A stretch of DNA of 64,000 bases from Christensenellaceae bacterium (GCA_031259085.1 JAIRMA010000039.1:10392-74391), one strand, 5' to 3'; shown: positions 1,632-56,811, numbered from the stretch's first letter. Made by a program: numbers and translations. The notes: generated from the sequence alone by a model not told the origin.

Positions 1632-1635
1632 AAAA

Positions 1636-13168: not shown

Positions 13169-13201
13169 ATATAAACAACATCCAAAATATGGAGGCTTTC
13201 A

Positions 13202-14104: not shown

Positions 14105-14148
14105 TAACTAATTAATTTGCTTTCTTAAATTATTTATTAACATGATAG

Positions 14149-14175
14149 ATGCGTACATGAATAACATGTACGCAT
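14149..14175 (+). terminator. Hairpin after 13202..14104 (weak U-tract)
   Basis: Perfect 11-bp stem atgcgtacatg / catgtacgcat with loop aataa, followed only by tta. Confidence 0.4.
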
Positions 14176-14310
14176 TTACATAATATAATTGTATTCGAAA
14201 GTGGAAAACATGAGGCTCCTTGAAATGACTACAATCTTTTCAAAAAAAATAATACGTTTTTCTTAGCTATGCAATATTGCTTTTGCTATTTAGAAATATA
14301 GGCAGGCATA

Positions 14311-16572: not shown

Positions 16573-16578
16573 TATTAT

Positions 16579-16618
16579 AAAACTGCTTAAATTTAGGGAC
16601 CCTATTTAAGCAGTTTTT
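16579..16618 (+). terminator. Rho-independent terminator
   Basis: 14-bp stem aaaactgcttaaat / atttaagcagtttt ending in a T-run. Confidence 0.8.
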
Positions 16619-17045
16619 GTAAGACATTATGTTAGATCCAAGGGCCAATTACTTAAAAATCTTAGTTCTAAATGTTTTTACAAAAATTGTGTGCTTTACA
16701 TATCATCATAATAATGATAATTGCTAGAGATTGAACCTCTGATCTTAGTATGAAGGTATGCTATAAGATCAAAGTATATAATATACATTCACACTTAGCT
16801 AGCTAAATTATGCTCTTTGATTTAGTATTCATTTTAAGCAGTTAAAAAGTAAGCAATTATATTGTTCAAATGACTTAATAATTAGCTATTTAAAAAAATA
16901 GTTTCTTTATTTTAATTATAAGGAACTAAAATAATTTATATGAAATGCTTCTTTTAAAATAAAAAGTAGCATTTTTTCTTGATGTAGAACAGAAGACGTA
17001 TTATCTATTCAGTCTGGATCTAGCATTATTTCCATATTCTAATAA

Positions 17046-36345: not shown

Positions 36346-36761
36346 TATTTCTCCAATCTAATAATTTAAATCAGACTAATAATATCGCTAGTCTGTTATC
36401 AGAGTATATTGCTGGTGGTGATGTCGTGCTTTTGCAAGGTGAATTAGGTGCTGGCAAAACTACGCTAGCTAGTGCACTCATAAAAGCACTAGGAGTTCAA
36501 GCGACGGTTGTGAGTCCTACCTATAATATCATAAAAGAATATAAGGGAAAATTAGACATTTTTCACTTAGACATGTATAGAATTAAATCAAGTGATGAGC
36601 TGTACGAATTAGGCATTGAGGACTGTTTTTCGCATGATTCACTAGTCATTATAGAATGGAATAAACTCCAAAATTTAACTGGACGAATAATATCAATTGA
36701 AATAACTACAGTTGATTTCAATACTAGACAATTTAAAATAACAGGACTGTTAGATTCATGA
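36342..36761 (+). CDS. tsaE: tRNA t6A biosynthesis ATPase TsaE
   Basis: P-loop GELGAGKTT, SPTYNI and DMYR motifs. Confidence 0.88.
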   Translation: MIFLQSNNLNQTNNIASLLSEYIAGGDVVLLQGELGAGKTTLASALIKALGVQATVVSPTYNIIKEYKGKLDIFHLDMYRIKSSDELYELGIEDCFSHDSLVIIEWNKLQNLTGRIISIEITTVDFNTRQFKITGLLDS

Positions 36762-37318
36762 ACGCATTAATTGTAGATGCTACAAGCTCAAAACTAGCGG
36801 TAGTTCTAATCAAGGATGCTTTGATTTTTTCCAGTATAGGAAGTCAAAAAGCAAAGAGACACGCCTCAGAAATTCTATGTGTAATAGATGACCTTTTAAC
36901 TCAATGTGGTTTGCATGCGATTGAATTAGATGTTGTAGCTACCATAACTGGCCCAGGGTCATTTACAGGAATACGTGTAGGTGTTGCAACTTGTAACGCG
37001 ATAGCACACGCAAGCAAAGCTAAAAGGATCGAGATAACTTCATTAGAGTCTATATTGTATGGGATTGATTCAGGCATGGCTTTGCTCGATTGCAATAACG
37101 ATAATTACTATGCATTAGAAAAAAATTATGGCACATATAATTATTTTGCTATTTCAAAAAGCGATTTAGACGGGTTTAAAACTGAAAAACATTATATTAC
37201 AGAATTTGACATAGATAAGACAATAAAAGTATTTAAAGAAAAATATGCTAAAAACGAATTTGTTGATGTACTAACTCCCTTTTATATTAAAAAATCCTCC
37301 GCAGAAAAATATGAATGA
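36758..37318 (+). CDS. tsaB: tRNA t6A biosynthesis protein TsaB
   Basis: GPGSFTGIRVGVA motif, with overlapping stop/start codons shared with tsaE and rimI. Confidence 0.85.
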   Translation: MNALIVDATSSKLAVVLIKDALIFSSIGSQKAKRHASEILCVIDDLLTQCGLHAIELDVVATITGPGSFTGIRVGVATCNAIAHASKAKRIEITSLESILYGIDSGMALLDCNNDNYYALEKNYGTYNYFAISKSDLDGFKTEKHYITEFDIDKTIKVFKEKYAKNEFVDVLTPFYIKKSSAEKYE

Positions 37319-37757
37319 ATTTAATTTTGAAAATATGTGTGCCCTAGATATTGAAGATATCGTGCAAATTGAAAAACTAACTTTTGGATCACATTCATGG
37401 AGCGAGCAACTATTCTATTCGGAATTGAATGACCCTATCAAACACTATATTGTATTGAAAGAAAATAATTTTGTAATTGCTTACGGCGGTTATGCACAAA
37501 TTCATGATGAAGGGCATATCATGAATCTAGCTGTAGATCAGTCCTATCGGGGGATGGGTATTGGAAAAGCACTAGTGCTAGAATTAATCTCAAGAATGAA
37601 AAATTCAAGTATAACTTGTGCTACCTTAGAAGTTAATGAGAACAACATCAATGCTATAAAACTTTATGAGAAATTAGGGTTTGAATTAGCAGGAAAGCGT
37701 TATAATTATTACGCTAAAGGAGAATCCGCACTGATTTATTGGCTCTACTTTGAATAG
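37311..37757 (+). CDS. rimI: Ribosomal-protein-alanine N-acetyltransferase RimI (GNAT)
   Basis: GNAT motif A YRGMGIGKAL, in the tsaE-tsaB-rimI order. Confidence 0.85.
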   Translation: MNEFNFENMCALDIEDIVQIEKLTFGSHSWSEQLFYSELNDPIKHYIVLKENNFVIAYGGYAQIHDEGHIMNLAVDQSYRGMGIGKALVLELISRMKNSSITCATLEVNENNINAIKLYEKLGFELAGKRYNYYAKGESALIYWLYFE

Positions 37758-37817
37758 GAGGCAGTAATAAGCCTAATAAATCATTATCAAAACGGAATAG
37801 GTGATGATATCATCATC

Positions 37818-38480
37818 ATGCATGGCTGGGGTTGCGACTCAAAGAATTTGGAAAACGTCGCGTCTATTCTCTCTCATGAATTTAGAGTCACCCTAGTAGA
37901 TTTTTATGGTTTTGGAAAAACCCCACACCCCGAACGAGTATTGAAAATAGAAGATTATGCGGATTCCATAATCGCAATCATTTCTAACTATAAAATGATC
38001 AATATAACACTTCTAGGTCATTCTTTTGGGAGTAGAATCGCAATTTTTTTAGCGGCTAAATACCCCGCATTTTTCAAAAATATAATACTACTAAACCCTG
38101 CAGGGATAAAGCCTTTTTACGGACCAATACATTATTTTAAAATAAATCTGTTTAAACTCATTCGTGCACTCAACCTGCCAATAGCAAGCTTTGGATCCAC
38201 AGATTATTTAAATTTAAAAGGATATAAGCGCGATAGCTTTAAAAATATTGTAACTTTCCACCTCAATAAATTTCTACACAAAATCACAATACCCACACTG
38301 ATTATAGCAGGAAAAAACGACAAGGTAATAAAACTATACATGGTGCGAAAACTAACACGCATGATAAAACATGCAAAATGTATTGTGATAGATAATGCCT
38401 CGCATTTTTGTCATTTAGAGAGACCAAATGAAACATTATCTGTAATAAAAGAATTTTTAGGGGGGTCTAATGATTATTGA
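37818..38480 (+). CDS. Alpha/beta hydrolase; the true start is probably upstream of the first ATG
   Basis: HGWG oxyanion motif, nucleophile elbow GHSFGS and a C-terminal His (ASHF). The beta-strand preceding HGWG (SLINHYQNGIGDDIII) is encoded at 37770-37817, in frame, between the rimI TAG and ATG 37818. Confidence 0.8.
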   Translation: MHGWGCDSKNLENVASILSHEFRVTLVDFYGFGKTPHPERVLKIEDYADSIIAIISNYKMINITLLGHSFGSRIAIFLAAKYPAFFKNIILLNPAGIKPFYGPIHYFKINLFKLIRALNLPIASFGSTDYLNLKGYKRDSFKNIVTFHLNKFLHKITIPTLIIAGKNDKVIKLYMVRKLTRMIKHAKCIVIDNASHFCHLERPNETLSVIKEFLGGSNDY

Positions 38481-40014
38481 ATCTATAATTACTATTCTAT
38501 TCATCATTTCATCAATTGTAATTGGAATGCGCATGCTAATTTCACTACAGTTAAATGGGTATAGGGTACGAAAAAAAGCCTATTTAATACCACTTAACGT
38601 TAAACAACTAATCGAGTTTAGCTCATTACTTTTCTTAGGGCTATTAACTATATTAAGTGTTAAATTTGGAACTATCTTAACATACTCTATAACAATAACT
38701 ATAACACTATCATTAATAGTTTACTATGTGAATGATTACATTAAGCTTCGCACAAAATTCAAATTCACAGCGCGTGGGACGCGTTTTTATATATTCTATG
38801 TTTTGATATTGACTATTATGCATTTGATTATTAGTATGTTATCAGTGGAGTTAATATTCCATCGATTATTTAGTATAACACTTCTTCTAATGAGTGGATT
38901 ATTAGCAATATGTGTTAGCATGATTTTGTCACCTCTTGAGTTTTTAAATAGCCTAAAGTATATAAAGATTGCAAAAAATAAATTATTGAACCTTAATGCT
39001 ATTAAAATTGGAATAAGCGGTAGCTATGGAAAAACAAGCTGCAAAAATATATTAGGAGCGATGCTTGCAAAGAAATATAAGGTGATAAAAACTGAAGGGA
39101 ATAGAAATACTCCTATGGGAATTTGTCTCACTACTAACAATATGACAAGTGATGCGGAGGTTTTCATTGCAGAGATGGGCGCTAGAAGGCGTGGTGATAT
39201 TAAAAAACTCTGTGATATTGTAAAACCCACTTGCGCATTGCTGACAGGAATAAGTAATCAACACATGTCAGAGTTTGGTAGTCTTGAAAAAATCTACCAA
39301 ACAAAGAGTGAATTAATCAAAGCTTTGCCAAGAGATGGAATTGCTATTTTTAACGGCGATGACCCCTTAATCACAAAATTACGAAAAGAATTTACTGGTG
39401 ATTCGGTAGCAGTACATTTAAGAGATGAACAGGAAGTCTATGCAAAGAATATTAAACTTAGTACTAACGGAATAAGTTTTGAGATTTTTGGACTCTCAAC
39501 TCCATTTAAGGTGTCTACAAAACTATTAGGAAGACATAACGTGCTTAATATTTTAATGTGTTCTGTAATGGCATATAAACTAGGGATAAGCCCAAATGAA
39601 ATAGCCTCCGCGCTATCTGAATTGGAGCCCATCCCACACAGACTACAAATTATCAAAAACACAGGTGAAATAACTATTATAGATGATAGTTATAATGCAA
39701 ATATCTCTGGATCTATATTTGCATTAGAGGTCCTAAAACTCTACTCAGGGAGAAAAATCGTATTTTCACAGGGACTAGTGGAACTTGGAAAACTAAATAA
39801 TCGATATAATCGACATCTTGGGGCAGTAATTGGTAAAACAGCAGATGTCATTATCTTAACGGGGCAAAACACCAACTCATTATTAAAAGGTATTGATTCT
39901 GTTGGATTTAGTGGGACTGTATATAGATACAAATCGTTTAAAGAAGCTACAGTTAATATTAAAGAGATTCTAAAGCCTGGTGATGTACTATTAATTCAAA
40001 ATGATATTCCATAG
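38470..40014 (+). CDS. murF: MurF-like Mur ligase with a ~170-aa polytopic membrane N-terminus
   Basis: P-loop GISGSYGKTS at residues 181-190, a DDSYNAN motif and the adjacent ddl gene. Residues 1-160 form about 5 hydrophobic helices in place of the usual soluble N-domain. Confidence 0.8.
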   Translation: MIIESIITILFIISSIVIGMRMLISLQLNGYRVRKKAYLIPLNVKQLIEFSSLLFLGLLTILSVKFGTILTYSITITITLSLIVYYVNDYIKLRTKFKFTARGTRFYIFYVLILTIMHLIISMLSVELIFHRLFSITLLLMSGLLAICVSMILSPLEFLNSLKYIKIAKNKLLNLNAIKIGISGSYGKTSCKNILGAMLAKKYKVIKTEGNRNTPMGICLTTNNMTSDAEVFIAEMGARRRGDIKKLCDIVKPTCALLTGISNQHMSEFGSLEKIYQTKSELIKALPRDGIAIFNGDDPLITKLRKEFTGDSVAVHLRDEQEVYAKNIKLSTNGISFEIFGLSTPFKVSTKLLGRHNVLNILMCSVMAYKLGISPNEIASALSELEPIPHRLQIIKNTGEITIIDDSYNANISGSIFALEVLKLYSGRKIVFSQGLVELGKLNNRYNRHLGAVIGKTADVIILTGQNTNSLLKGIDSVGFSGTVYRYKSFKEATVNIKEILKPGDVLLIQNDIP

Positions 40015-40030
40015 TCTAAAGAGGTATTGC

Positions 40031-41122
40031 ATGAAAAATATTATGGTTATTTATGGTGGGGATTCAAGTGAACATGATATCTCTATAATAACAGCAGTAG
40101 AGTCTATGATGGTAGCACCTATTAAAGGCTACAGAATAATTCCAGTGTATGTTAAGAATTCGGTTTGGTACACAGGCAGATGCTTGTTTGAGATTAAAAA
40201 TTATCTCAATTTTTCACCTGCTCGCTATACAAAAGTATTACTTTTTAATAAAGCTTTATATGAGATTAAACGATCTAAAAAGCTTGTTAAATTATTTGAT
40301 ATTGATTGCGCGCTTATATTAGCACATGGTGGAGGTGGGGAAAATGGGGAATGGCAAGGTCTTTTTGATACAAATGGAATACCATACACTTCATCTAACG
40401 TGGAGGCATCCGCTATTTGTATGAATAAAAGCTATTGCAAAACATTATTAAAAAGTTGGAGAGTAAATGTAGTAGAAGGCATTACAATAAATAGTAATCC
40501 CGATCTAGATGAGATCGAAAACATTTTAAAAGAGTTCGATTTACCTGTTGTTGTAAAACCTGTGTCACAGGGAAGTAGTATCGGGATTAGTTTAGTAAAT
40601 TCAGTCGATACACTTAAAACTGCAATAAACACTGCTAGTAAATATTCGTCTAGACTATTAATTGAAAAGGGGTTGAACAATTGCTTAGAATTCAACCAAG
40701 CGGCAGTATTCTTGAGAGATGAGCTTGTATTGTCAAAAATAGAAAAACGTATGTCAAGCGGGGATATATTTACTTATAATGACAAATATCTATCAAATAA
40801 GAATTCAAGATCTGCGACTGATTTTTTGGATGATTTTGAGAATAATGAATTGAAGCTTGAGATTTCAAATATTACTAAGAGTGTTTATGTCAAATTAAAT
40901 CTGTGGGGTATCGTCCGTTTTGATTACCTTTATTCTAATAATATATTATATTTGAATGAAATAAACACTATTCCTGGCTCTTTAGCACATCATTTATTTG
41001 AAAATATGACATACCAACAATTGTTAAAATCTATTATTGATGAATCAATCAAGCGAATAATTTTTAAACCCTGTCATTTTCAATCAAATGTATTAGAAAC
41101 TTTGAACTCTATATCAAAATAA
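40031..41122 (+). CDS. ddl: D-alanine--D-alanine ligase
   Basis: AAGAGG SD lies 6 nt before ATG 40031. N-terminus VIYGGDSSEHDISI and an ATP-grasp core (VVKPVSQGSSIGIS, NEINTIPG). Confidence 0.88.
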   Translation: MKNIMVIYGGDSSEHDISIITAVESMMVAPIKGYRIIPVYVKNSVWYTGRCLFEIKNYLNFSPARYTKVLLFNKALYEIKRSKKLVKLFDIDCALILAHGGGGENGEWQGLFDTNGIPYTSSNVEASAICMNKSYCKTLLKSWRVNVVEGITINSNPDLDEIENILKEFDLPVVVKPVSQGSSIGISLVNSVDTLKTAINTASKYSSRLLIEKGLNNCLEFNQAAVFLRDELVLSKIEKRMSSGDIFTYNDKYLSNKNSRSATDFLDDFENNELKLEISNITKSVYVKLNLWGIVRFDYLYSNNILYLNEINTIPGSLAHHLFENMTYQQLLKSIIDESIKRIIFKPCHFQSNVLETLNSISK

Positions 41123-41237
41123 ATGGTTGTCTACTTTGATCAAAAATCAATTTAGTGAAGCAATACATCTGTTGTTTTTTACTTTTTATTTACTAATATC
41201 TTTTTTGAAAAAAAATTTAAAACACAGCCCATTTTGT

Positions 41238-41266
41238 TTGACAGTCTAAAATTTATATATTAAAAT
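41238..41266 (+). promoter_or_regulatory. Promoter TTGACA-17-TAAAAT for glnN
   Basis: TTGACA at 41238-41243, a 17-nt spacer, TAAAAT at 41261-41266. Confidence 0.6.
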
Positions 41267-41282
41267 AATATCATAGCAAAGC

Positions 41283-41323
41283 AAAGGCGCTGCGGCTTGT
41301 TCCGTAGCGCCTTTTTTATTTTT
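41283..41323 (+). terminator. Strong intrinsic terminator hairpin inside the glnN 5' leader
   Basis: 11-bp GC-rich stem aggcgctgcgg / ccgtagcgcct (one G-U pair) with loop cttgtt, followed by ttttttattttt. It lies between the promoter and the SD. Confidence 0.75.
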
Positions 41324-41340
41324 AATATTAAGGAGAGTGG

Positions 41341-43434
41341 ATGATGAACAAAATTCCCGATATGTTTGGTGAATTAGTTTTTGGTGAAGCAATAATGCGC
41401 GAGCGTCTACCAAAGGACACTTACAAAGCTTTGAAGAAGGCAATAGCTGAGGGTAAGTCTTTGGAATTAGATGTCGCAAACTCAATTGCAAACGCAATGA
41501 AAGATTGGGCGGTATCAAAGGGTGTAACACACTTTACACACTGGTTCCAGCCAATGACAGGTGCTACAGCAGAAAAACATGATAGTTTTATTTCGCCTAC
41601 TGCAGAGGGTAAAATTATAATGGAGTTTTCTGGTAAAGAATTAATCAAGGGTGAACCTGATGCGTCAAGTTTCCCGTCTGGTGGTATTAGAATGACATTC
41701 GAGGCGCGTGGATATACTGCATGGGATCCAACGTCATATGCCTTTATTAAAGATAACGCTCTTTGCATCCCGACTGCATTCTGTTCCTATGGTGGAGAGG
41801 CTTTAGACAAGAAAACACCGCTTTTGAGATCTATTGATGCTTTGAATAATCAGGCAATGCGAATTTTAAGACTTTTTGGTAATACTACAGCTAAAAATGT
41901 TATTTCAACAGTCGGCCCTGAGCAGGAATATTTTCTTATTAACAAAGACCTATATGAAAAACGCCGTGACCTTGTATTAACAGGTAGGACGTTATTTGGT
42001 GCAAAACCACCTAGAGGGCAAGAATTAGAAGACCATTATTTTGGTGCGATTAAATCAAGAGTCGCAGAGTACATGGCAGACCTTGATCTCGAGCTTTGGA
42101 AGCTTGGAATCCTTTCTAAGACAAAACATAACGAGGTTGCACCATCTCAACATGAGTTGGCCCCAATATATAGCACGACTAATACTGCTACTGATCATAA
42201 CCAATTGGTTATGGAATTGATGAAAAAGATTGCACCAAAGCACGGTTTAACTTGCTTATTACATGAAAAACCATTTGCAGGGATTAATGGTAGTGGCAAA
42301 CATAATAACTGGTCAATTTCTACTGATACTGGTGTTAATCTACTCGATCCTGGCTCATCTCCTGAAGAAAATGCACAATTTTTATTATTCTTAACAGCCA
42401 TACTAACTGCTGTTGATGATTATCAAGATCTTTTAAGAGCCTCCGTAGCTAGTGCTGGAAATGATCATCGTTTAGGCGCTGCAGAAGCACCTCCTGCCAT
42501 CATATCTGTTTTCTTAGGCGACATCTTAACTGATATTGTTAATAGTATTGTTGATAGTAAGAAATATAACAAAAAAGAAGACAGTTATATAGAAATTGGA
42601 GTTGGATCACTACCAAAAATTCCAAAAGATAATACTGATAGAAATAGAACATCACCATTTGCATTTACTGGTAACAAGTTTGAGTTTAGAATGCCTGGAT
42701 CAGCGTTCTCTATATCTGGACCCAATTTTGTGCTTAACACAATCGTAGCAGATGCCCTGTCTAATTTTGCAGACATATTAGAAAAAGCTAAGGACTTTAA
42801 TGCTACTTTGCAAGTTATAATAGCTGAAAATCTAACTAAACATAGACGCATAGTGTTCAATGGCAATGGTTATACGGATGAATGGGTTAAGGAAGCAACT
42901 AAGAGAGGGTTATTAAATCTAACTTCAACAATAGATGCGCTTCCAGAATTCATTGCAGATAAAAACATAAAACTTTTTGAAAAACATAAAATTTTATCTG
43001 AAATTGAAATGCGCTCGCGCTATGAGATATTAGTCGAAACCTATGTCAAGACAATAAAAATCGAAGCGTTAACAATGATTGATATAGCGCGAAAAGACAT
43101 AATTCCTGCTGGTGAAAAGTATGTTAGCTTGCTTGCAAGTACCGCTAAATCTAAGTTGGATGTAAGCAAAACATTCACTGTTGACTTAGAAAAGTCACTA
43201 ATCACTAAATTAAGTGATCTATTACTTAAAATATATACAAGAGCAGAAGGGCTCGAGGCAAAATTAACTGAAGCAGAAGAAAAAGGTGATGCTACTGCAG
43301 AAGCTCGATTCTTTAGATCGGCTATAGTACCAGCTATGTCTGAACTAAGAGAAGCAGCAGACACATTGGAAATATATACAGCAGAGAAATATTGGCCATT
43401 CCCATCTTATTCTGATCTATTGTTTTCAGTATAA
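41341..43434 (+). CDS. glnN: Glutamine synthetase type III
   Basis: About 700 aa, with a GSIII-type N-terminus (FGELVFGEAIMRERLPKDTYKALKKAI...THFTHWFQPMTG) and a catalytic core (NGSGKHNNWS). Confidence 0.9.
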   Translation: MMNKIPDMFGELVFGEAIMRERLPKDTYKALKKAIAEGKSLELDVANSIANAMKDWAVSKGVTHFTHWFQPMTGATAEKHDSFISPTAEGKIIMEFSGKELIKGEPDASSFPSGGIRMTFEARGYTAWDPTSYAFIKDNALCIPTAFCSYGGEALDKKTPLLRSIDALNNQAMRILRLFGNTTAKNVISTVGPEQEYFLINKDLYEKRRDLVLTGRTLFGAKPPRGQELEDHYFGAIKSRVAEYMADLDLELWKLGILSKTKHNEVAPSQHELAPIYSTTNTATDHNQLVMELMKKIAPKHGLTCLLHEKPFAGINGSGKHNNWSISTDTGVNLLDPGSSPEENAQFLLFLTAILTAVDDYQDLLRASVASAGNDHRLGAAEAPPAIISVFLGDILTDIVNSIVDSKKYNKKEDSYIEIGVGSLPKIPKDNTDRNRTSPFAFTGNKFEFRMPGSAFSISGPNFVLNTIVADALSNFADILEKAKDFNATLQVIIAENLTKHRRIVFNGNGYTDEWVKEATKRGLLNLTSTIDALPEFIADKNIKLFEKHKILSEIEMRSRYEILVETYVKTIKIEALTMIDIARKDIIPAGEKYVSLLASTAKSKLDVSKTFTVDLEKSLITKLSDLLLKIYTRAEGLEAKLTEAEEKGDATAEARFFRSAIVPAMSELREAADTLEIYTAEKYWPFPSYSDLLFSV

Positions 43435-43566: not shown

Positions 43567-45303
43567 ATGCAAACTATGTTGTTGTCGGATGCGGCACTAA
43601 TGACGTTTTCTTCGACAGACACTATTTGGGTTTTGTTAGCAGCCGCTCTTGTATTCTTTATGCAAGCTGGTTTTGCAATGGTAGAAGCTGGGCTAACCCG
43701 AATAAAAAATACTGGAAATATCATTATGAAAAACCTTATGGATTTTGCCATAGGTACCATAGTATTCTGGTTATTAGGCTTTGGGTTAATGTTTGGAACT
43801 GATTTAGGTGGTTTTATGGGAACCCCTGATCTATTAGTACTACAAGGAGATTATAGCGCAGGTTATCCTTCATATGCCTTTGTAATATTCCAAACAGTAT
43901 TCTGTGCTACAGCAGCAACAATCGTGTCAGGAGCTATGGCTGAGAGGACTAAATTTATAAGTTATCTAATTTATAGCGCTATGATTTCGATGATAATTTA
44001 TCCGATTTCCGGACACTGGATATGGGGCGGCGGTTGGTTATCTGAATTAGGCTTCCACGACTTTGCAGGATCAACAGCTGTACATATGGTAGGTGGCGTA
44101 GCTGCATTAGTAGGCGCATTAGTGCTAGGTCCTAGAATTGGTAAATATGATAAAAAAGGAAAACCTAAAGCAATTTTGGGCCATAATATGGCAATTGTAG
44201 CTTTGGGTGTGTTTATACTATGGTTCTGCTGGTTTGGATTCAATGGCGGTTCTACAACAGCGGCCTCAGATGATGGCTCATTATCTACAATGGCTTTGGC
44301 ATTCGTTACAACTAACCTAGCTGCTGCAACTTCTACCCTCACTACTTTGATATTCAGCTGGATTAGATACAAAAAACCTGATGTCTCCATGACATTTAAT
44401 GGTGCATTAGCTGGCCTTGTTGCAATTACCGCTGGTGCTGACGCAGTAGATCCAGTGGGCGCGTTCTTTATCGGTTTATTAGCAGGCCTTGTGATTATCC
44501 CAGCTGTTGAATTTCTTGACAAAAAAATCAAGGTCGACGATCCGGTTGGTGCAATTGCGGTTCACGGTGTTTGCGGTGCTATGGGTACAATATTAGTTGG
44601 GCTATTCAGTACAGATGAGGGTTTGTTCTATGGTGGCGGATTTAGATTACTAGGAGTTCAAACTCTGGGTGTTGTAGTTGTAGCAGCATACGTTGCAGCA
44701 GCTATGTTAGGTATATTCTTGTTGCTTAAAAAGACAATCGGATTACGTGTGAGTAAGCAAGAAGAACTTGCAGGTCTAGATATCTCAGAACACGGTTTAG
44801 CTACAAGCTTTGCAGGATTTGCAACAGCCTCAGCTACTAGTGATGGAGTTTCGTATGTCAGCGCCCCACCTACATCTGACACAGGTGTAACTGTTGAATA
44901 CAACAATGAAGGTGGAGAAGCCGCGATTGATGACGATGTTGTCGATAAAAATAAATTTACTAAGGTTGTAATTGTATCTAATCCCTCAAAATTTGATGAT
45001 CTCAAAGTGGCTCTTAATAACATTGGGATAACTGGGATGACGGTCACAAATGTCATGGGATTCGGAATGCAAAAGGGTCATACTGAATACTACAGAGGTG
45101 CCCCCGTAGATGTTAATTTACTACCAAAATTTAAGGTTGAAATCGTCGTTTGCAAAGTACCCGTTAGAACTGTTATTGATACTACCAAGAAAGTACTATT
45201 CACTGGAAATTACGGCGATGGAAAAATATTTGTATACGACGTGACAAACGTTGTAAAAATACGAACTAATGAAGAGGGCTATGCCGCATTGCAAGATGAC
45301 TAA
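43567..45303 (+). CDS. amt: Ammonium transporter (Amt) fused to a C-terminal PII (GlnK/GlnB) domain
   Basis: Amt TM core (AGFAMVEAG, DFAGSTAVHMVGG, GVCGAMGT) followed by about 112 aa of PII (KVVIVSNPSKFDDLKVALNNIGITGMTVTNVMGFGMQKGHTEYYRG...GDGKIFVYDV). Confidence 0.9.
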   Translation: MQTMLLSDAALMTFSSTDTIWVLLAAALVFFMQAGFAMVEAGLTRIKNTGNIIMKNLMDFAIGTIVFWLLGFGLMFGTDLGGFMGTPDLLVLQGDYSAGYPSYAFVIFQTVFCATAATIVSGAMAERTKFISYLIYSAMISMIIYPISGHWIWGGGWLSELGFHDFAGSTAVHMVGGVAALVGALVLGPRIGKYDKKGKPKAILGHNMAIVALGVFILWFCWFGFNGGSTTAASDDGSLSTMALAFVTTNLAAATSTLTTLIFSWIRYKKPDVSMTFNGALAGLVAITAGADAVDPVGAFFIGLLAGLVIIPAVEFLDKKIKVDDPVGAIAVHGVCGAMGTILVGLFSTDEGLFYGGGFRLLGVQTLGVVVVAAYVAAAMLGIFLLLKKTIGLRVSKQEELAGLDISEHGLATSFAGFATASATSDGVSYVSAPPTSDTGVTVEYNNEGGEAAIDDDVVDKNKFTKVVIVSNPSKFDDLKVALNNIGITGMTVTNVMGFGMQKGHTEYYRGAPVDVNLLPKFKVEIVVCKVPVRTVIDTTKKVLFTGNYGDGKIFVYDVTNVVKIRTNEEGYAALQDD

Positions 45304-45413: not shown

Positions 45414-45442
45414 AAAAACGCCCTTTTGAGGGGCGTTTTTTT
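45414..45442 (+). terminator. Rho-independent terminator after amt
   Basis: Stem aaaaacgccc / gggcgttttt with loop ttttgag, followed by a T-run. Confidence 0.85.
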
Positions 45443-45815
45443 CATTACCTTATAATACAAAGATTCAAATTTATGAATTTTCATATAAAAAAAATCAAAG
45501 TGCTTTTAACAAAATACAATACAATAACAAAAAGCAATTTTGGAATTACGAAAACGATACTTTTTATAATCTAACTTAAATAAATCGGACAAAATATAAA
45601 AAGCTTAATTGCTAACATTATCGCATTGTATATTTGTATTGTAAAGGCCTTATTACAAAGATGAAAGTTCTACATTCTTTCGTCCTGTCAAAATGATTTG
45701 CAAATTAATTTAACCTGTTTTTTGATCCTTTAGCTTGCTATTACTAGGGAGAACGCATGAAAACTCCTATATAAATTTTTAAACTCAAACATACAAGTAT
45801 GGGCATGATTTTTCT

Positions 45816-46064
45816 TTAAATGAATAGATCATGCTTTTTTGACAAAATTATATTTGATTTAATTGATGGTTTATCGTGTATAAGTTTCCAATGCTCCAAA
45901 TAGTTTTCGTCTTTGGGTAATTTCCACAAATTATCCCAAACTTCAAAATCGTAGTGTATATAAGGAAAAGTAAACAGCACAATTTTATCCTTCGGTGACG
46001 GAGTAATTGTATAGCCGACATTACTTTGTAAATGCTTCAAAATTCTTTCAATAATTTCCTTCAT
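45816..46064 (-). CDS. Hypothetical 82-aa protein, last gene of the island operon
   Basis: Its ATG lies 2 nt after the stop of the rhuM-tail ORF. No SD and no recognisable motif. Confidence 0.5.
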   Translation of the reverse strand: MKEIIERILKHLQSNVGYTITPSPKDKIVLFTFPYIHYDFEVWDNLWKLPKDENYLEHWKLIHDKPSIKSNIILSKKHDLFI

Positions 46065-46066
46065 AA

Positions 46067-46159
46067 TTATTTTTTACTTTTGTCATTCTTTATCGGGGTA
46101 TTTAATAATTTTCGCATTTCTTCAAGCGTGCCAAGATATGCCTTTTCAACTTCGGTCAT
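46067..46159 (-). pseudogene. Out-of-frame C-terminal tail of the RhuM gene (30 codons)
   Basis: The +1 frame reads (KYKNKNTNE)MTEVEKAYLGTLEEMRKLLNTPIKNDKSKK*, and that frame is open back to the A5 run at 46184-46188 inside rhuM. Confidence 0.45.
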
Positions 46160-46178
46160 TTCATTTGTGTTTTTGTTT

Positions 46179-47105
46179 TTATATTTTTATTTCGGCTTTT
46201 CCGTAGGCGTCAATTTCGCTTATTGTCCCGCCGTCAGTTAAAACTTGCTCGCCATAGTTTTTTATGTGTGTGTCAAGTATTTCAACCCAATTCTTCATAA
46301 ACATTTGATTATGTCTTTCGGCTTGGTGTTCTGCGAAATCAAAGAAAGAGTTTACAAGTCGCCTTAAAGATTTCAACTCGGTTTCGGTTAAATAGTCTTT
46401 GGCAATCATGGCTTCATCTCTTGCTGGGTGATTACCCTTAAAAACGGTAAGTCCCATAAACGGCAATTCGGCATTTGCACGATTAAACACAATTTCACTT
46501 GCTGTATATCCTGTGGAAGCATAATGCAATTTTGCCTGCACAATTTTGAAAAATTTTACTGTTTCATCACTTTGTGGGTTATAGTCAATGCTTGTTGCAT
46601 ACAAATCAAGCACTTGGCGATACATAACTTTCTCGCTTGCCCGAATATCACGGATACGCTCTAAAAGTTCTTTCCAATACAAACCGCCACCAAGATTTTT
46701 TAATTTCTCATCGTTCATCGCAAAACCTTTCTTCATATATTCTGTTAATATATTACTTGCCCATTTGCGAAAAGCAATACCACGAGCAGAATTAACACGA
46801 TAACCAATGGCAAGTATCATATCAAGGTTATAAAAATCAACTTCGTGTGATTGCGTTTTGTCTTGCATTGCACCGTGTGGAGTGGTTGTTCGGTATTTAC
46901 GAACTACCACTTCTTTATCTAATTCGCCGTCTGCAAAAATGCGTTTAATATGTTCGCTTATATTACTTTTGCTTGATTGAAACAAATCTACAATCTTTGA
47001 CTGTGGAAGCCATACGGTTTCGCCGTCAAAAACAACCTCCACCTTTGTTTGTCCGTCAGGTGTTGTGTAAATTACAATCTCGTTTTTCTTTTCTTCTTTT
47101 TCCAT
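46179..47105 (-). CDS. rhuM: RhuM-family protein (apparently truncated at the 3' end)
   Basis: Strong resemblance to the Virulence_RhuM family (VWLPQSKIVDLFQSSKSNISEHIKRIF..., FYNLDMILAIGYRVNSARGIAFRKWA). AAGGAG SD lies 5 nt before ATG 47105. Confidence 0.85.
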   Translation of the reverse strand: MEKEEKKNEIVIYTTPDGQTKVEVVFDGETVWLPQSKIVDLFQSSKSNISEHIKRIFADGELDKEVVVRKYRTTTPHGAMQDKTQSHEVDFYNLDMILAIGYRVNSARGIAFRKWASNILTEYMKKGFAMNDEKLKNLGGGLYWKELLERIRDIRASEKVMYRQVLDLYATSIDYNPQSDETVKFFKIVQAKLHYASTGYTASEIVFNRANAELPFMGLTVFKGNHPARDEAMIAKDYLTETELKSLRRLVNSFFDFAEHQAERHNQMFMKNWVEILDTHIKNYGEQVLTDGGTISEIDAYGKAEIKI

Positions 47106-47115
47106 TTTCACTCCT

Positions 47116-49329
47116 TTATATCTTTTTGTCCAATTCTTTCCAAACGATTAGATTAGATAGGTCTTCGTCCCAAATCGTTGTATTTATTAAAAGTTCTTGG
47201 CTGTTACAATCAAAACGCACAAAACCGCCAGCAAGTAAATATATCTTGTTGCCGAATGTCGTTTTTGAGTGAGTTTTAAGATATTCCATTAAGGCAGAGA
47301 ATTTTTGAGAAGAAACAGGGTCTATATTTTGAGAAACTCCGCTACTTGTTTGTCCGCCTTTCGTTTCAATTATCCATATTTTACCTGTTATATCTATAAC
47401 GATATAATCGGGGTAAAAATGTTTTTGTTTACCACTATTTATAGAATAGACAATAGAAAAATACTCTTGATTATGTTCTCCATTTTTATACCACCAAACA
47501 ATATTTTTATTATCTTCGCACCATTTTTCAAATTTCTTTTCGGGTTCGCTCCGTTTGGCAACATTGGAAGTGTAACCTTCATAAACATTCTTTGCATAAG
47601 GCGTAATTCGTTTGTTTGTGCCATCGATAGGAAAATCATATTCCCGTGGTAGTAGCCAGAGGCTTTCATTTACCTTTGGCTGCATAATTATTTGTTGTGC
47701 GGGGTTTGGGCCGTTCATCGCATTTCTAAAATCAGTTTTCAATTTATCAAAGTTATTGATGATAAAGGCGTAAAGAAATTTATTATCAAAATTAAATAGG
47801 TTCTTCTTAAATTTTGCTTTTGCGGAAAGGTCAATAAACAATGCTCTAATGACGGTAATTGCGTCTTCGTATTTTAATGAAACGGCAGAACCGACTTCGC
47901 CAACGGCTTTATGAAATGCACGCCCGTGAATATGTGTTGAAAGTATGGCAGAACCGCTTAATGTGTTTGTATCTTTTAATTCGCTAAATACCGTTGCCGA
48001 ACCGCTCGCAGTGTTAATGTGGATATTTGCGTCAAATATATATCCGCTTGCTTCAAGTTTTGCTTTATTGCCCGTATAATCTTTCGGTTTCGTGTTGTAG
48101 GCGCTGTTAAAATAATCCGCCACCACTTCACGCACTTTTGCCCCGTCTATTGGGTTTTGAATATCGGGGTTGTATTGCTTCTTTAATGTGATTGGTTTGT
48201 GAATGGTTTTTAAGAACAATTTTCTAATTTCACCGCCGTAAATATCTTTTGAAAGCCCAGCGATAAAACCCTTATCAAAAGTATAAATATAGCAATCATC
48301 AAGTATGTCGTTGTTATAATGTTTCGCCTCGGGCATACGGCGTATTCTGCCTATTGTTTGAACTTCGAAAACTTCATCCATATTCTCACGCAGTTTCACA
48401 AGTATGCACGCTCTTGGACAATCCCAACCCGTTGCGATTGCCTGTTTGAAAATCAAAACAATGGGTGAAGCGAAATTATCTTCTATGCCGTCTTTGTTGT
48501 CGTATCGTCCGTTAAGCCAAAATGCAAGTAAGCCATTATCAACAGTTATATTTTTTGTTGCCAAAAATTTTTCAAGGTTTTGAATTAAAGCGGAAGACGG
48601 GTCGCCACTGCTGTTGTTTGGAATTTGCACACAGATTAAAGGGTTTATTCGTGTATTTAATTTCGCAAATTCGTTCACAATTCCTTGTCGTTTCGTAATA
48701 GCAAGGTTTAGCAGAATATCAAAACTGTTTGCATTGCGTTCGTCAATAACAAAACCCTGTTGCAAATCTTTATTCACAATAATTTGTTTTTTAATAAGTC
48801 CAGCACCGATAACTTCACTTTCTTCAATTTTTATCAACCGTTTGTCTTTCACATTTTTTGGTGTTGCGGAAGCATAAATCTCACAAACAGGATTAAATAA
48901 TCGTTTTATCTCGGTCGCCTTAAAAGTGTCGTTCAAATGTTGTTCGTCAATAATCAAAATAAACTTAATGCCCGAAAGCAATGCTTTTTCAATTTTATCC
49001 TGCAAGTTATCTCGTTCACTGTCGCTTATCGCAATATTACCTTTCTTTGTTATCTTTTCCCAATTTATGAATGTTGCGGAGTTCTCTTCAAAACCGCCCG
49101 TTAGAATATCATTTACTGTGTTAGTTCTAAACATAGGAAAATACTTTGCCATTTTATCTCTGCTTTGTTCAGCAAGGTCGCCTTTGCCTATTGAAAGCCA
49201 CACAAACGCATATTTTGCGTTTCGGGCAATAAATTCGTCCATAAAGTGTGCAAGAATAACGGTTTTTCCGCTTCCTGTTGGCGATTGCAAAATAATATCT
49301 TTCTCGCTCTGTTCCGCAAAAGTTATCAA
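47116..49329 (-). CDS. res: Type III restriction enzyme Res subunit (SF2 helicase + C-terminal PD-ExK nuclease); the start probably lies upstream, near 49368
   Basis: Motif I SPTGSGKT, II IIDEQH, III SAT, VI TIGRIRRMPE, and the nuclease motif YPDYIVIDITGKIWIIETKGG. The frame stays open up to 49392. Confidence 0.85.
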   Translation of the reverse strand: MITFAEQSEKDIILQSPTGSGKTVILAHFMDEFIARNAKYAFVWLSIGKGDLAEQSRDKMAKYFPMFRTNTVNDILTGGFEENSATFINWEKITKKGNIAISDSERDNLQDKIEKALLSGIKFILIIDEQHLNDTFKATEIKRLFNPVCEIYASATPKNVKDKRLIKIEESEVIGAGLIKKQIIVNKDLQQGFVIDERNANSFDILLNLAITKRQGIVNEFAKLNTRINPLICVQIPNNSSGDPSSALIQNLEKFLATKNITVDNGLLAFWLNGRYDNKDGIEDNFASPIVLIFKQAIATGWDCPRACILVKLRENMDEVFEVQTIGRIRRMPEAKHYNNDILDDCYIYTFDKGFIAGLSKDIYGGEIRKLFLKTIHKPITLKKQYNPDIQNPIDGAKVREVVADYFNSAYNTKPKDYTGNKAKLEASGYIFDANIHINTASGSATVFSELKDTNTLSGSAILSTHIHGRAFHKAVGEVGSAVSLKYEDAITVIRALFIDLSAKAKFKKNLFNFDNKFLYAFIINNFDKLKTDFRNAMNGPNPAQQIIMQPKVNESLWLLPREYDFPIDGTNKRITPYAKNVYEGYTSNVAKRSEPEKKFEKWCEDNKNIVWWYKNGEHNQEYFSIVYSINSGKQKHFYPDYIVIDITGKIWIIETKGGQTSSGVSQNIDPVSSQKFSALMEYLKTHSKTTFGNKIYLLAGGFVRFDCNSQELLINTTIWDEDLSNLIVWKELDKKI

Positions 49330-49364
49330 CTCGTTTACGGCATTAAATTGAAAATCTTTTAGTA

Positions 49365-51095
49365 TTATATTTGTTTCTCCTTGTAATAATATTCAGGGAT
49401 AACATTTATTTTAATACCGTGTTCGGTTGCCATTTGTTGTTGCAAAAGTGTCAGTGAAATATCGTGTCCTAAATAAATTGTTTTAACTTTTGCAAGTTTC
49501 TTTTCGTTCGTAAAAAATGCTTCCACTTGATTTTCATCAAGCAAAATATCAATTCGGTCATTATGGTCAAAATCAATCGCATTTTCAAGTTCCACAAGTT
49601 CCTTTATGTGAAGTAAAAGCGTATCCGCATACTCATAATAAAGTTTCTCCGTAATGGGCGTAAAGTCCACCTTGAAATATTTTAACGAACCAGCAATCCC
49701 TTTACTATATTCACTTCCGTCTTTTCGTTTGCCCGTGATGACCGTTTTAATCCGTTGATATGTTACTTCTTCACAAATATTATTTTCATTATTTGTGCAT
49801 AAAATAAACTTTCGTCTTCCGCCGTCTTCACGGTTTAATTCCAAAACTGCGTGTCCCGTTGTGCCAGACCCAGCAAAGAAATCAAGAATTATTGCCTGTT
49901 TCCTTTTGCCGACAACGGCATATAAACAATCGTAAACATTCCATAAGGATTTTGGGAAGTCAAACGGTGCGTCAGGCACAAGGTCGTTGATTATCTTCTT
50001 ACCATATTCATTGCTATCATATCGTGGGCCCTGCCAAACAGTTCTGTATGTCCCAAAATTCTTACCTATTTCAATTTCATATCTACCCTTTACAATCTTT
50101 ACTCGTAAATTCTCTTTTACCGAATCAACACTTTGTCTTGCATAACGCCATTTCCGTTCAATGCCCTGTATGTCAATGGGGTAAACATAAGTTACTCCGT
50201 CAATTACTTCATTCTGTTTCGGGTGTTTATTCATATCACTAACTACTTCACCAAAACCAATAATTTCATCTTGTGCCACTAAAATAGGATAAAAACAATT
50301 TTTTGCGTCTGTCCTTAAACTTTCACCGCCATTATCTCTTAAATTACGCCAATCAATTTCGCTATCATCAATTTTTCGTTCGCCTATTATTTTATCACCA
50401 ACAGGCACAACAAATATTGCATACTCGTGTGTATAAGAAAAATTCTTGCCTTGTATCCCACGGGGATTGTGGACAATGGAAATACAATGATATTCATAAG
50501 CCGACCCAAATATACTTTCAAGTAAAAACCCAAGTGTGTGTAATTCGTTTTCGTCAATCGCACAAATCAAAACACCCTTTTGTGTTAAAAGTTTCTTTGC
50601 AATATCAAGGCGTCTTTGCATAAGAGTAAGCCACTTACTGTGCCGAAATAAATCATTTTTGTCGGCATAGTCATTATCATATTTCCAATCTTTTGCCCCT
50701 GTGTTATACGGTGGGTCAATATAAATAATATCAATTCTGCCATTATGCGTTTTTTCTAAAAGTTTCAAAGAGGCAAGGTTATCGCCCTCAATTAAAAAAT
50801 TCATTTGCCCACCATTATCAGTAAAACGGCTTTTGTCTTCAATTAAAATTGGTTCATTCGTTTCAAGCATTTCGTCAATTTGTTCTTTATGTTCTTCAAA
50901 AACAAGCCCGTATTTTTTGCTTTTAATTTCTTTTTCTAACTCGGCAACAAAAGAAAGTAAACGGGCGGTGTTTTCGTCCTGTGGAGCGTTCTTGATGAAC
51001 GCCTTTATTTCATTCGCCTTTGCGACAAGGGTTTCTCTCTTTTGCTTGGAAATATTCATATTTGGAATTATATCATAAATCATAAGAATCAGCAA
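49365..51095 (-). CDS. mod: Type III R-M Mod subunit (beta-class N6-adenine/N4-cytosine DNA methyltransferase)
   Basis: Motif IV IIYIDPPYNTG precedes motif I DFFAGSGTTGHA. The start is uncertain (TTG 51095, ATG 51083 or ATG 51059). Confidence 0.88.
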   Translation of the reverse strand: MLILMIYDIIPNMNISKQKRETLVAKANEIKAFIKNAPQDENTARLLSFVAELEKEIKSKKYGLVFEEHKEQIDEMLETNEPILIEDKSRFTDNGGQMNFLIEGDNLASLKLLEKTHNGRIDIIYIDPPYNTGAKDWKYDNDYADKNDLFRHSKWLTLMQRRLDIAKKLLTQKGVLICAIDENELHTLGFLLESIFGSAYEYHCISIVHNPRGIQGKNFSYTHEYAIFVVPVGDKIIGERKIDDSEIDWRNLRDNGGESLRTDAKNCFYPILVAQDEIIGFGEVVSDMNKHPKQNEVIDGVTYVYPIDIQGIERKWRYARQSVDSVKENLRVKIVKGRYEIEIGKNFGTYRTVWQGPRYDSNEYGKKIINDLVPDAPFDFPKSLWNVYDCLYAVVGKRKQAIILDFFAGSGTTGHAVLELNREDGGRRKFILCTNNENNICEEVTYQRIKTVITGKRKDGSEYSKGIAGSLKYFKVDFTPITEKLYYEYADTLLLHIKELVELENAIDFDHNDRIDILLDENQVEAFFTNEKKLAKVKTIYLGHDISLTLLQQQMATEHGIKINVIPEYYYKEKQI

Positions 51096-51098
51096 TCA

Positions 51099-51420
51099 TT
51101 ATCGGCTCCACGGCATATTAAAGTCATCTGCAATCGGCACGAGTTCAATTTGTTTAACTTCTTGTCCGCTTTGTTTTTCGTAAATCAAATTGCCGTTGCT
51201 ATCCATTCGGGCAATATTTTATATCAAACTCAAACTTATAACTTTTTATTTTTTATGTAACACTCAATAAATTACCACCGCAATAGTAAATGTTTATATA
51301 ACCGTTTCTTATTTCAATCTGTAAATCATTATGTGCTTAGATAATAGCGAGTAATTCTTTTAATTCGTCACTCGTCAAATTGTCAATAAACTTTTGGCTG
51401 ATTTTTCTAATGTGATTCAT
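51099..51420 (-). pseudogene. Decayed gene remnant (two in-frame TAA stops plus one frameshift)
   Basis: Reads MNHIRKISQKFIDNLTSDELKELLAII*AHNDLQIEIRNGYINIYYCGGNLLSVT*KIKSYKFEFDIKYCPNG*. After a frame shift it continues MDSNGNLIYEKQSGQEVKQIELVPIADDFNMPWSR**. Confidence 0.4.
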
Positions 51421-51574
51421 ATAAATGAGTATAACATAAAACACTCAAATCACTATTTTGTTTTGGTGCTGTTACAGAAAATCGTCCTTTGCTTATTCCT
51501 TGCCTTACAATCCAATACCATTCAATTCTTTTTCTTTTGGGTTTTTTTGTGCCACAAACGCTAGCCACACATTT

Positions 51575-51606
51575 AAAAAAGATATAGTAAAAAACTATAT
51601 CTTTTT
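51575..51606 (-). terminator. Terminator downstream of tRNA-Tyr
   Basis: Stem gatatagt / actatatc extended by A/T pairs, with loop aaaaa and T6 following on the minus strand. Confidence 0.7.
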
Positions 51607-51665
51607 CGGTGTGAACGCCTACGGCTAAACACTCGCTTTCGCTCGTGTTCAAATGCATTCGTGTT

Positions 51666-51751
51666 TGGTGGGAGGAGGTGGATTCGAACCACCGAAGTTT
51701 TCCAACAACAGATTTACAGTCTGGCCCCTTTAGCCACTCGGGAATCCTCCC
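51666..51751 (-). tRNA. tRNA-Tyr (anticodon GTA), class II with a long variable arm, CCA encoded
   Basis: The reverse complement folds by hand: acceptor GGGAGGA/TCCTCCC, anticodon loop CTGTAAA, variable stem GTT-GGAA-AAC, T-arm GGTGG-TTCGAAT-CCACC, then ACCA. Confidence 0.9.
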
Positions 51752-55212: not shown

Positions 55213-56811
55213 TTATTTAGCATATTCAACGCTTCGCAGTTCACGAATTACGTTGACTTTAATTTGTCCTGGATATTCTAACTCGGACTCAAGTTTTTTT
55301 GCTATATCTTTAGCAAGTAACACGCATTCCGCGTCACTTACTTTTTCGGGTTTTACAATTATTCGTATTTCCCTACCAGCCTGTATAGCATACGACTGAT
55401 CAACACCTGCAAACGAGTTTGCTAAACTTTCCATTTTTTCGAGTCTCTTGACATAAAATTCAATAGAATCACGTCTTGCTCCAGGTCGAGATCCACTAAT
55501 GGCATCTGCTACCTGTACTATAATAGCTTCAACTGTTGTTGCCTCAACATCGCCATGATGAGCAGCTATTGCGTGAATTACCTTTTCATTTTCATGATAT
55601 TTTTTTGCAATATCAACACCAATCTGAACATGTGTGCCTTCAAATTCATGGTCAACAGCTTTTCCTATATCGTGCAACAATCCAGCTCTTTTTGCTGTTT
55701 TAACGTCTGCTCCTAATTCAGAAGCAAGTAGCCCAGCTAAATGTGATACCTCTAACGAATGCTTTAAGACATTTTGTCCATAACTAGTCCTAAATTTCAA
55801 ACGCCCAAGTAATCTTACAAGATCTCCATGAATTCCAAACATACCTGCATCACTTACGGCACTTTCACCAGCTTCTTTTAAGCTTATTACAATATCGCGC
55901 CTAATGCGATCTGCAACTTCTTCAATTCTAGCAGGTTGAAACCTTCCATCTAATAACATTTTTTCGATCGTTTGTTTTGCGACTTCGCGTCTTACAGGAT
56001 CAAATCCAGATAAAGTAATAATGTCAGGTGTGTCATCAATTATGATGTCAACTCCAAGAGTGCTCTCTAACGCCTTAATGTTGCGTCCTTCACGACCTAT
56101 TATTCGACCTTTCATATCATCATTTGGTAATGAAACTATAGCAGTCGTTGTCTCGGACGACTGGTCAACCGCACATCTTTGTATAGCTAACGCTACAATA
56201 TTTTGTGCTTTTTTGTCACCCTCTTCACGAGCTTCTCGCTCAATCTCTTTTATTAGATTAACAGCATCTTTCCTTGCATCAGATTCCATTTCTTTAATGA
56301 TAAGCTCCTTTGCTTCGTCTCTAGTTAAAGCAGCGACTCGCTCTAATTCGGCTCTCATCAATTCTTGATGTTTTTCAGCTTCAGCCTCTCTTGACTTAAC
56401 TCGCTGTTCCCTGGAATCAAGATCTCGGCGTGTTTTATCAACTTGTTCAAGCTTCCTATCTAATATGGACTCTTTTTTATTTATGCTGTCTTCTTTTGAA
56501 TGTATGCGGGATTCATGTCTTTGAATTTCAATGCGTTTTTCTTTGGATTCTTTTTCAAACTCGTTACGCAACCTGAGTTGCTCTTCCTTCATATCTATCA
56601 TTGCATCTTTTCTAATGTCCTTTGCTTCAGCATTGGCTTCCTCTAAAATCCTTGCATATTCCGATTCAGCATCAGCTTTACGATGCTGCATAATTTTCTT
56701 ATATATGAGAATTCCAGAGGCTACTCCAATCGCTAGCGATGGGATAATTGAGATAACCGCAACGACAAGAGCAGGTAAAGCACCTACTAACATTGTCAGA
56801 TTGCCTAACAT
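55213..56811 (-). CDS. rny: Ribonuclease Y
   Basis: GGAGG SD, an N-terminal TM, a coiled coil, a KH domain ([11 protein letters not shown]) and an HD domain (LLHDIGKA). Confidence 0.93.

Follow-up and report, generated by a model that had tools for sequence, protein, structure and literature searches.

How did a set of Type III restriction-modification (R-M) genes come to lie beside a transfer RNA (tRNA) gene without any mobility gene, and can it still restrict? The question is raised by a block of minus-strand genes in a 64,000-nucleotide stretch of Christensenellaceae bacterium DNA (GCA_031259085.1 JAIRMA010000039.1:10392-74391; 'the window' hereafter means this whole stretch), in which a Type III methyltransferase gene (mod) and restriction gene (res) are followed by a gene of the RhuM family (rhuM), a detached piece of its tail and an 82-codon open reading frame (ORF), orf82. 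An earlier note, made from the sequence alone, had described the block as a Type III R-M island with RhuM and passengers beside tRNA-Tyr and without mobility genes; profile matches, nucleotide signature and an ORF scan support that description, its argument from G+C (guanine-plus-cytosine) content excepted.

Our reading, to which we give a probability of about 0.72, is that the segment between 45.44 and 51.67 kb is a horizontally acquired, mobility-gene-free and partly decayed Type III R-M and RhuM islet. It would be an islet of ~6.2 kb, wedged between the terminator of amt and the 3' end of tRNA-Tyr (Table 1) in one of the low-G+C Clostridia, a Christensenellaceae-like organism found in metagenomes only.

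Nucleotide signature of the block

We regard the segment as foreign because its dinucleotide, tetranucleotide and codon signature is unique in the window, and not on account of its G+C content. With same-size windows of the 64-kb stretch as the reference for composition, and a 2-kb scan of all 64 kb for the signature, the CpG observed/expected ratio was 1.34 in the segment against 0.78 in the rest, the AG/CT ratio 0.69 against 0.97, the AA/TT ratio 1.30 against 1.06 and the tetranucleotide distance 0.333 against 0.149±0.045. The scan flagged the windows between 45 and 52 kb and no others; at finer resolution, the shift runs from the amt terminator to tRNA-Tyr. Codon usage, which had been proposed as a check, is likewise distinct, with skewed use of Arg CGN (68% in the segment vs 43% in the rest) and Leu CTT (38% vs 16%).

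The claim that G+C is visibly higher than in the flanks fails. The 60-bp counts on which it was based (26, 26, 16 and 21) are exact but cherry-picked: the 5.6-kb segment has a G+C of 0.354 against 0.3405±0.0138 for same-size windows, 20% of which are equal or higher, and the neighbouring genes amt (0.409) and the type III glutamine synthetase gene (GSIII, 0.372) are richer than the segment itself. The signature is good evidence that the segment was transferred fairly recently, from a donor of similar G+C whose genome signature differs. A related cassette shows the same kind of shift: in a Christensenellaceae metagenome-assembled genome (L085), a YhcG-mod-res block (1-7000) has a CpG observed/expected ratio of ~1.45 against 0.85-1.0 in the flank (8000-16000). 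On a second contig (L083), the genome around the cassette has the high-CpG signature throughout. That L085 and the window share this signature suggests that such cassettes come from a common donor pool.

A compact Type III mod-res pair

Mod matches the PADLOC profile MTase_III (3.7e-95) and the Pfam family N6_N4_Mtase (PF01555, 1e-22), and its solved relatives in the PDB are Type III Mods only (Mbo45V, 7dsu, 6.6e-43; a Helicobacter Mod, 6k0w; EcoP15I Mod, 4zcf_A). The protein aligns over its full length with three homologues, with DPPY at residues 115-118, FAGSG at 395-399 and a divergent middle between them. The order of the motifs, DPPY (IV) before FAGSG (I) with a central target-recognition region, is that of the beta class, and the layout is as expected for a predicted beta-class N6-adenine enzyme with its own specificity. 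The ATG start, giving 564 aa, was also picked by gene callers, and mod has no polymorphism between the window and a second assembly of the organism (contigs of SRR14710918). Phase variation of mod was considered and rejected, as the gene has no simple-sequence repeat or homopolymer tract. The ORF scan of the block revealed no hsdS-like specificity ORF.

The matches of Res to Pfam ResIII (1.5e-12) and PADLOC REase_III (1.2e-16) are both modest. Its family comprises 6907 homologues of ~730-750 aa, which their sources name 'type III restriction enzyme', 'restriction endonuclease subunit R' or DEAD/DEAH helicase. Res carries the ATPase motifs of helicase superfamily 2 (SF2) (TGSGKT 31-36, DEQH 141-144, SATP 167-170, QTIGRIRR 337-344) and a C-terminal nuclease motif (PD at 653-654, followed by E668-T-K670), and the helicase and PD...ETK motifs are invariant in 44 aligned homologues. 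No PDB chain was matched by sequence or by family profile. Foldseek with an AlphaFold2 (AF2) model of Res (predicted local distance difference test score, pLDDT, 79.8) returned EcoP15I Res (4zcf_C) as the second-best and longest match (678 columns, E = 1.2e-10) among generic SF2 helicases, with low template-modelling scores (TM-scores) of 0.33-0.38. From sequence and model, we accept Res as a putative Type III subunit of a compact and divergent branch. Failure of Mod and Res to match Type III profiles, the outcome named beforehand as telling against a Type III pair, did not occur.

With EcoP15I and EcoP1I (PDB 4zcf), the window's pair shares the order of mod then res and the lack of an S subunit. 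Its Mod is detectably homologous to EcoP15I Mod, both being assigned to the beta-class N6-methyladenine (m6A) methyltransferases, and its Res, like that of EcoP15I, has an SF2 DExH ATPase and a C-terminal PD-ExK nuclease in one polypeptide; however, it is ~220 residues shorter (750 vs 970 aa), and the res start codon in the window is ATA.

The window's pair also resembles a set of compact mod-res cassettes from Bacillota (L083, L085 and three plasmids), which have a Mod of 560-645 aa and a Res of 734-754 aa, as in the window. Their Res proteins are 45-69% identical to that of the window, and the N- and C-terminal regions of Mod are conserved around a variable middle. These cassettes have an ATGA overlap between mod and res and lie on elements with mobility genes, whereas the window has ATAA and no mobility genes. 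The closest homologue on a long contig (L083; ENA ERZ28565943 scaffold_2, 1295-18124) lies in a dense defence island that encodes AbiEii, Hachiman (HamA and helicase), a helix-turn-helix (HTH) gene, mod-res and DUF4238, then MobL and a tyrosine integrase; the stretch looks like an integrative mobilisable element. The plasmids are pML7060-1 (Staphylococcus epidermidis), plasmid 2 of Enterococcus faecium E4227 and pQ20D70P-cfr-optrA (Mammaliicoccus sciuri). Since the accessory genes carried along with the closest cassettes vary (HTH and DUF4238 genes in L083, YhcG/DUF1016 in L085, recombinases on the plasmids), the mod-res pair is a mobile module. A DNA-level search of plasmids and phages returned only short patches of mod, res and rhuM at 65-74% identity and no related island.

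Damage to rhuM and orf82

RhuM is strongly assigned, with matches to PF13310 (1.3e-92, 310.1 bits, cut-off 33.7) and PADLOC PDC-S05 (1.5e-130); a search by sequence gave no PDB match. The gene encodes 310 aa from a GTG start or 308 aa from an ATG at 47105, and a contig of the second assembly (L082) carries the 308-aa gene call. Its match to PDLC04843 ends at profile position 297 of 330, short of the full length of ~330-350 aa; appending the tail fragment extends the match from 3-297 to 3-325 and raises it from 433 to 447 bits, and the same break appears when a 334-aa RhuM is aligned. The fragment had been read as a rhuM tail in the earlier note, which these comparisons bear out, and by the same comparisons rhuM is a truncated gene that has lost ~30 C-terminal residues by a stop and a frameshift.

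The window copy resembles the RhuM family (COG3943; RhuM of Salmonella pathogenicity island 3, SPI-3; PDC-S05) in its strong domain match and its place in or behind an R-M operon, and differs from it in that its last ~30 residues are split off. That RhuM-family genes ride in R-M loci was rightly claimed: RhuM has been proposed as a toxin-type second layer in R-M operons (Anantharaman et al. 2013, PMC3710099) and is enriched beside invertible R-M loci of the programmed-inversion Type I kind (PMC9881135). A Type III operon on IMGVR_UViG_3300025270_001884 (L101, 2082-7300) encodes a Mod of 628 aa, a RhuM of 350 aa and a Res of 736 aa, and shows that RhuM can take different slots in Type III loci; since rhuM lies there between mod and res, the association of RhuM with Type III systems seen here is not new. 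The accompanying statement that the role of RhuM is unknown is somewhat dated: a PDC-S05 representative in E. coli lowered plating of T7 and T5 ~1000-fold and of T4 ~10-fold (preprint 10.1101/2024.09.26.614923), an activity of one representative that is unrelated to the window's RhuM.

The small gene that follows had been flagged as uncharacterised, and orf82 indeed has no match in Pfam, PADLOC, NCBIfam or PHROG. A search of 5.8 billion proteins found only orf82 itself, and an exhaustive phmmer search returned one credible relative, a 121-aa protein (P0124, E = 3.6e-4), which is itself a DUF6508 protein (PF20118, 5.9e-12) and is encoded on a contig of 824 bp, too short to be informative about context. 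Residues 1-65 of orf82 align to residues 7-75 of this protein only; the conserved C-terminal half of DUF6508 is absent, and orf82 falls below the Pfam threshold for that family. The AF2 model of orf82 (pLDDT 43) is unusable, and none of nine other RhuM loci has an orf82-like or DUF6508-like ORF beside RhuM. Judging from the alignment and the gene spacing, orf82 is probably a truncated DUF6508-like remnant and was probably coupled translationally to full-length rhuM at first.

A res gene without its ATG

Five homologous cassettes were compared at the mod-res junction, two from metagenomes and three from plasmids, and in all of them the mod stop overlaps the res start as ATGA. In the window these four letters are ATAA, with 6 bp deleted in frame beside them, and the same ATAA junction is found in the second assembly (contig L095). 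A single G-to-A change keeps the mod stop, as TAA in place of TGA, and leaves res with ATA in place of its ATG. With ATA at its start position, res is without a canonical start; the first canonical one is a TTG 13 codons in, use of which would remove the invariant residues F6 and Q7. Between the two assemblies, res differs at three sites, and all three changes are nonsynonymous (A518V, A74T and M73I, the last at an invariant column of the Res alignment), against one of six in 11.7 kb of host flank, where the other five are synonymous (hypergeometric p = 4/84 = 0.048, calculated by hand). We take this pattern as suggestive only.

Restriction may thus be weak or dead. Because the res start is lost and genes of the block are damaged, the system would now most likely methylate DNA through Mod and restrict weakly or not at all, and we put the chance that restriction is weak or lost and methylation retained somewhat above even. 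Res would be made only from a very weak ATA start, perhaps coupled to termination of mod, or from the TTG, which would remove the Q-motif region.

The alternative that keeps most credit is an R-M system in full operation, in which Res is made from the ATA or by re-initiation at the mod stop, at a Res:Mod ratio kept low to protect the host, and forms a two-layer defence with RhuM. The 750-codon res frame is unbroken and keeps all its invariant residues, so inactivation must be very recent or the ATA start works through coupling to mod; the ATA occupies the exact position of the ATG in homologues, follows an AAGGAG by 8 nt and overlaps the mod stop, an arrangement that favours coupling; the RhuM Pfam domain is nearly complete; and Type III systems such as EcoP1I and EcoP15I need Mod in excess of Res. 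On the other hand, ATA is reportedly a very poor initiator in the bacteria in which it has been tried, as in measurements of initiation from all 64 codons in E. coli, and all five homologous cassettes keep ATG. The three res polymorphisms, all nonsynonymous and one of them at an invariant Met, and the visible damage to neighbouring genes of the block also speak against full operation, which we consider unlikely, though with a real minority chance.

The same observations might reflect a Mod that is kept as a solitary, phasevarion-like epigenetic regulator while res and the passengers are being discarded. An intact mod with zero polymorphisms beside a res without its start and a truncated rhuM would fit, and orphaned Type III Mods regulate expression in Haemophilus, Neisseria and Helicobacter. 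However, the absence of repeat tracts of the phase-variation kind from mod speaks against this alternative, and the decay looks recent and fits drift as well as selection for Mod; we find it improbable.

A bolder proposal would make the change from ATGA to ATAA an adaptive attenuator, with Res produced only by re-initiation and at a low Res:Mod ratio, and RhuM-orf82 a two-gene back-up module of the abortive or toxin-immunity kind. We rate it a long shot. If it were true, the attenuator could allow a foreign Type III cassette to establish itself in, and coexist with, a new host, and the RhuM-orf82 module would be one not described before.

Arrival at the tRNA-Tyr site

The preferred reading, an acquired islet in partial decay, has to account for the absence of mobility functions, which the earlier note had pointed out. 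No integrase or transposase ORF was found between 45.3 and 51.9 kb in the ORF scan, the leader ORF has no similarity to integrases, no direct or inverted repeat stands out in the segment, and the best local alignment of the tRNA region with the amt-side spacer scored 22 against 19.5±2.5 for shuffles. Rfam returned only the tRNA in the region, and no hidden RNA or att remnant. The block thus resembles tRNA-adjacent islands and defence hotspots in its position at a tRNA 3' end, its foreign, atypical signature and its defence cargo, and differs from them in lacking an integrase and a distal direct repeat of the tRNA 3' end. Arrival on a tRNA-targeted element is suggested because the block sits at the tRNA 3' end; the integrase and att sites of such an element would have been deleted later. 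Replacement at a recombination hotspot would be an equally possible route. Over the 3' part of tRNA-Tyr, 45 nt (51653-51697) are 91% identical to the very end of a human-gut 'Bacteriophage sp.' contig (MT836745.1, 8857-8901 of 8916); an attP or a tRNA of the phage could explain this match, which hints at use of the tRNA end as an attachment site.

Synteny was searched with Amt against one genome per GTDB species and with DnaX against JGI metagenome contigs. The nearest Amt relative (L001) is 83% identical; its contig extends 635 bp beyond amt, and homology to the window is lost at 45421, in the terminator. dnaX lay within 10 kb of amt in none of 80 Amt loci, and the metagenome relatives of DnaX are at most 51% identical. 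Exact-protein look-ups with Amt, DnaX, RhuM, orf82, YbaB, Mod and a further protein (P0001) returned only SRR14710918 contigs, all with the island; four of these contigs (L081, L082, L095 and L087) together cover the region, island included.

That the block is an ancestral, vertically inherited R-M locus next to tRNA-Tyr by chance is highly improbable: the missing integrase, transposase and att repeat, the ordinary G+C and the presence of the block in both assemblies agree with it, but signatures found nowhere else in the window and sharply bounded by the terminator and the tRNA, close Res relatives (67-69% identity) in unrelated contexts, one of them on the element with MobL and integrase, the same foreign signature of another close cassette against its own host flank, and the related cassettes on Staphylococcus, Enterococcus and Mammaliicoccus plasmids all contradict it.

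Layout and neighbouring genes

All sizeable ORFs between amt and tRNA-Tyr are on the minus strand, in the order leader, mod, res, rhuM, rhuM-tail fragment and orf82. The genes are closely spaced: the first codon of res overlaps the stop of mod, rhuM follows directly behind res with a gap of 4 nt, and 2 nt separate the stop of the tail fragment from the ATG of orf82. The tightly packed operon of the earlier note is thereby reproduced in position and order, as are its distances of about 230 bp to the 3' side of tRNA-Tyr (230 bp) and about 370 bp to the amt terminator (~375 bp from orf82 to the hairpin).

Table 1. Positions of the islet features and their flanking landmarks in the window
Feature	Position	Strand	Description
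amt	43567-45303	+	Flanks the block
Bidirectional intrinsic terminator hairpin	45414-45440	Ends amt on + strand	A-tract, GC stem, U-tract; -15 kcal/mol, z = -4.45
AT-rich non-coding spacer downstream of orf82	45441-45815	-	G+C ~0.25; foreign dinucleotide signature already present
orf82	45816-46064	-	Orphan 82-aa ORF
Detached rhuM C-terminal tail	46067-46159	-	30 codons, different frame
rhuM	46179-47111	-	PF13310; PADLOC PDC-S05
res	47116-49368 (first canonical start 49329)	-	Putative 750-codon Type III restriction subunit
mod	49365-51059	-	Predicted 564-aa Type III methyltransferase
Leader region ('decayed ORF' of the earlier note)	51100-51436	-	ATG-initiated protein-like frame with three stops
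Spacer, tRNA-Tyr 3' end to island genes	51437-51665	-	Holds the terminator-like hairpin of the tRNA; tRNA-side edge of the foreign signature
tRNA-Tyr (GTA)	51666-51751	-	3' end faces the island; flanking landmark, outside the island

The hairpin behind amt is the sole terminator-like structure downstream of the minus-strand block and, as the dinucleotide shift occurs there, is where the foreign-signature DNA begins on the amt side. The spacer between it and orf82 has no ORF of at least 40 aa and no Rfam match. Strain-level single-nucleotide polymorphism (SNP) sites between the window and the SRR14710918 Logan contigs lie at 45778, at 47816, at 49149-49150 and at six places in 36434-42342. These SNPs break the SRR14710918 assembly at k-mer overlaps (e.g. 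45748-45777), a pattern that can be mistaken for the edge of an island. The break between contigs at 45748-45778 was rejected as an island edge, being a k-mer overlap at a T/C SNP.

The leader region is protein-like, with three in-frame stops in ~75 codons, about the chance rate at 30% G+C. Pfam, PHROGs, PADLOC and NCBIfam, the set of 5.8 billion proteins, plasmids and the fetched loci (tblastn) yielded no homologue of it. Given that stop density and the lack of a homologue, an origin of the leader from a gene is not confirmed. The region probably holds the operon promoter. The gene table of L095 lists two minus-strand ORFs in it, of 83 aa (51407-51658) and 35 aa (51099-51206), which have no family match and are probably spurious.

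Upstream of amt lies a type III glutamine synthetase gene (41341-43434, plus strand; GSIII_N/Gln-synt_C), directly before it, and the amt product is an Amt fused to a C-terminal P-II (GlnK-like) domain (PF00909 and PF00543). The GSIII-amt pairing is kept in dozens of Clostridia loci. The block had been called the only defence-type locus of the window, and this stands: ten other unassigned ORFs have no defence matches, an HD domain excepted. The HD domain belongs to a 532-aa ORF (55213-56811, minus strand) with weak PADLOC matches to Cas10/Cas3 HD domains (2.6e-8), which, judging from its size, we take as an RNase Y-like housekeeping protein and not as a defence gene.

Discussion

Type III Mods are beta-class m6A methyltransferases that mark one strand of a short asymmetric site, and the Mod2-Res complex carries out an ATP-driven search for a second, inversely oriented unmethylated site before its PD-ExK nuclease cuts near one of the two. 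By analogy, Mod dimers of the islet would methylate one strand of such a site, and Mod2-Res would use its SF2 ATPase between inverted unmethylated sites and cut with the PD-ExK nuclease. rhuM, as a PDC-S05 member, would be a stand-alone second-layer anti-phage or toxin-type gene of the kind that is a frequent passenger of R-M operons. Decay would have left mod intact, taken the res ATG by the G-to-A change, with amino-acid changes now building up, and removed the rhuM tail; orf82 and the leader ORF appear to be remnants, the latter possibly one that abuts the tRNA.

Several observations weigh against an acquired islet in partial decay. The relatives reached through Amt and DnaX are too distant for synteny to bear on its island status. 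The three res SNPs are a tiny sample, and the two assemblies may share one biological sample, in which case their agreement is not fully independent. The res frame is open throughout, with every family-invariant residue kept, and the Pfam RhuM domain is almost fully covered (2-238 of 252), so a truncated RhuM may work. The link between orf82 and DUF6508 is a single match.

As a partly decayed defence islet, the locus is of a known kind, and its wider importance is small: it adds one more Type III R-M and RhuM islet at a tRNA-adjacent site, and its truncated rhuM copy is a poor model for the mechanism of RhuM. It is a case in which dinucleotide signature revealed horizontal transfer where G+C did not. 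What makes it mildly notable is the loss of the res start by a single base with the mod stop kept. The islet may represent an R-M system caught early in losing restriction and keeping methylation, through one G-to-A change that spares the overlapping mod stop, and the natural pair of ATA and ATG alleles bears on how Res dosage may be controlled by translational coupling.

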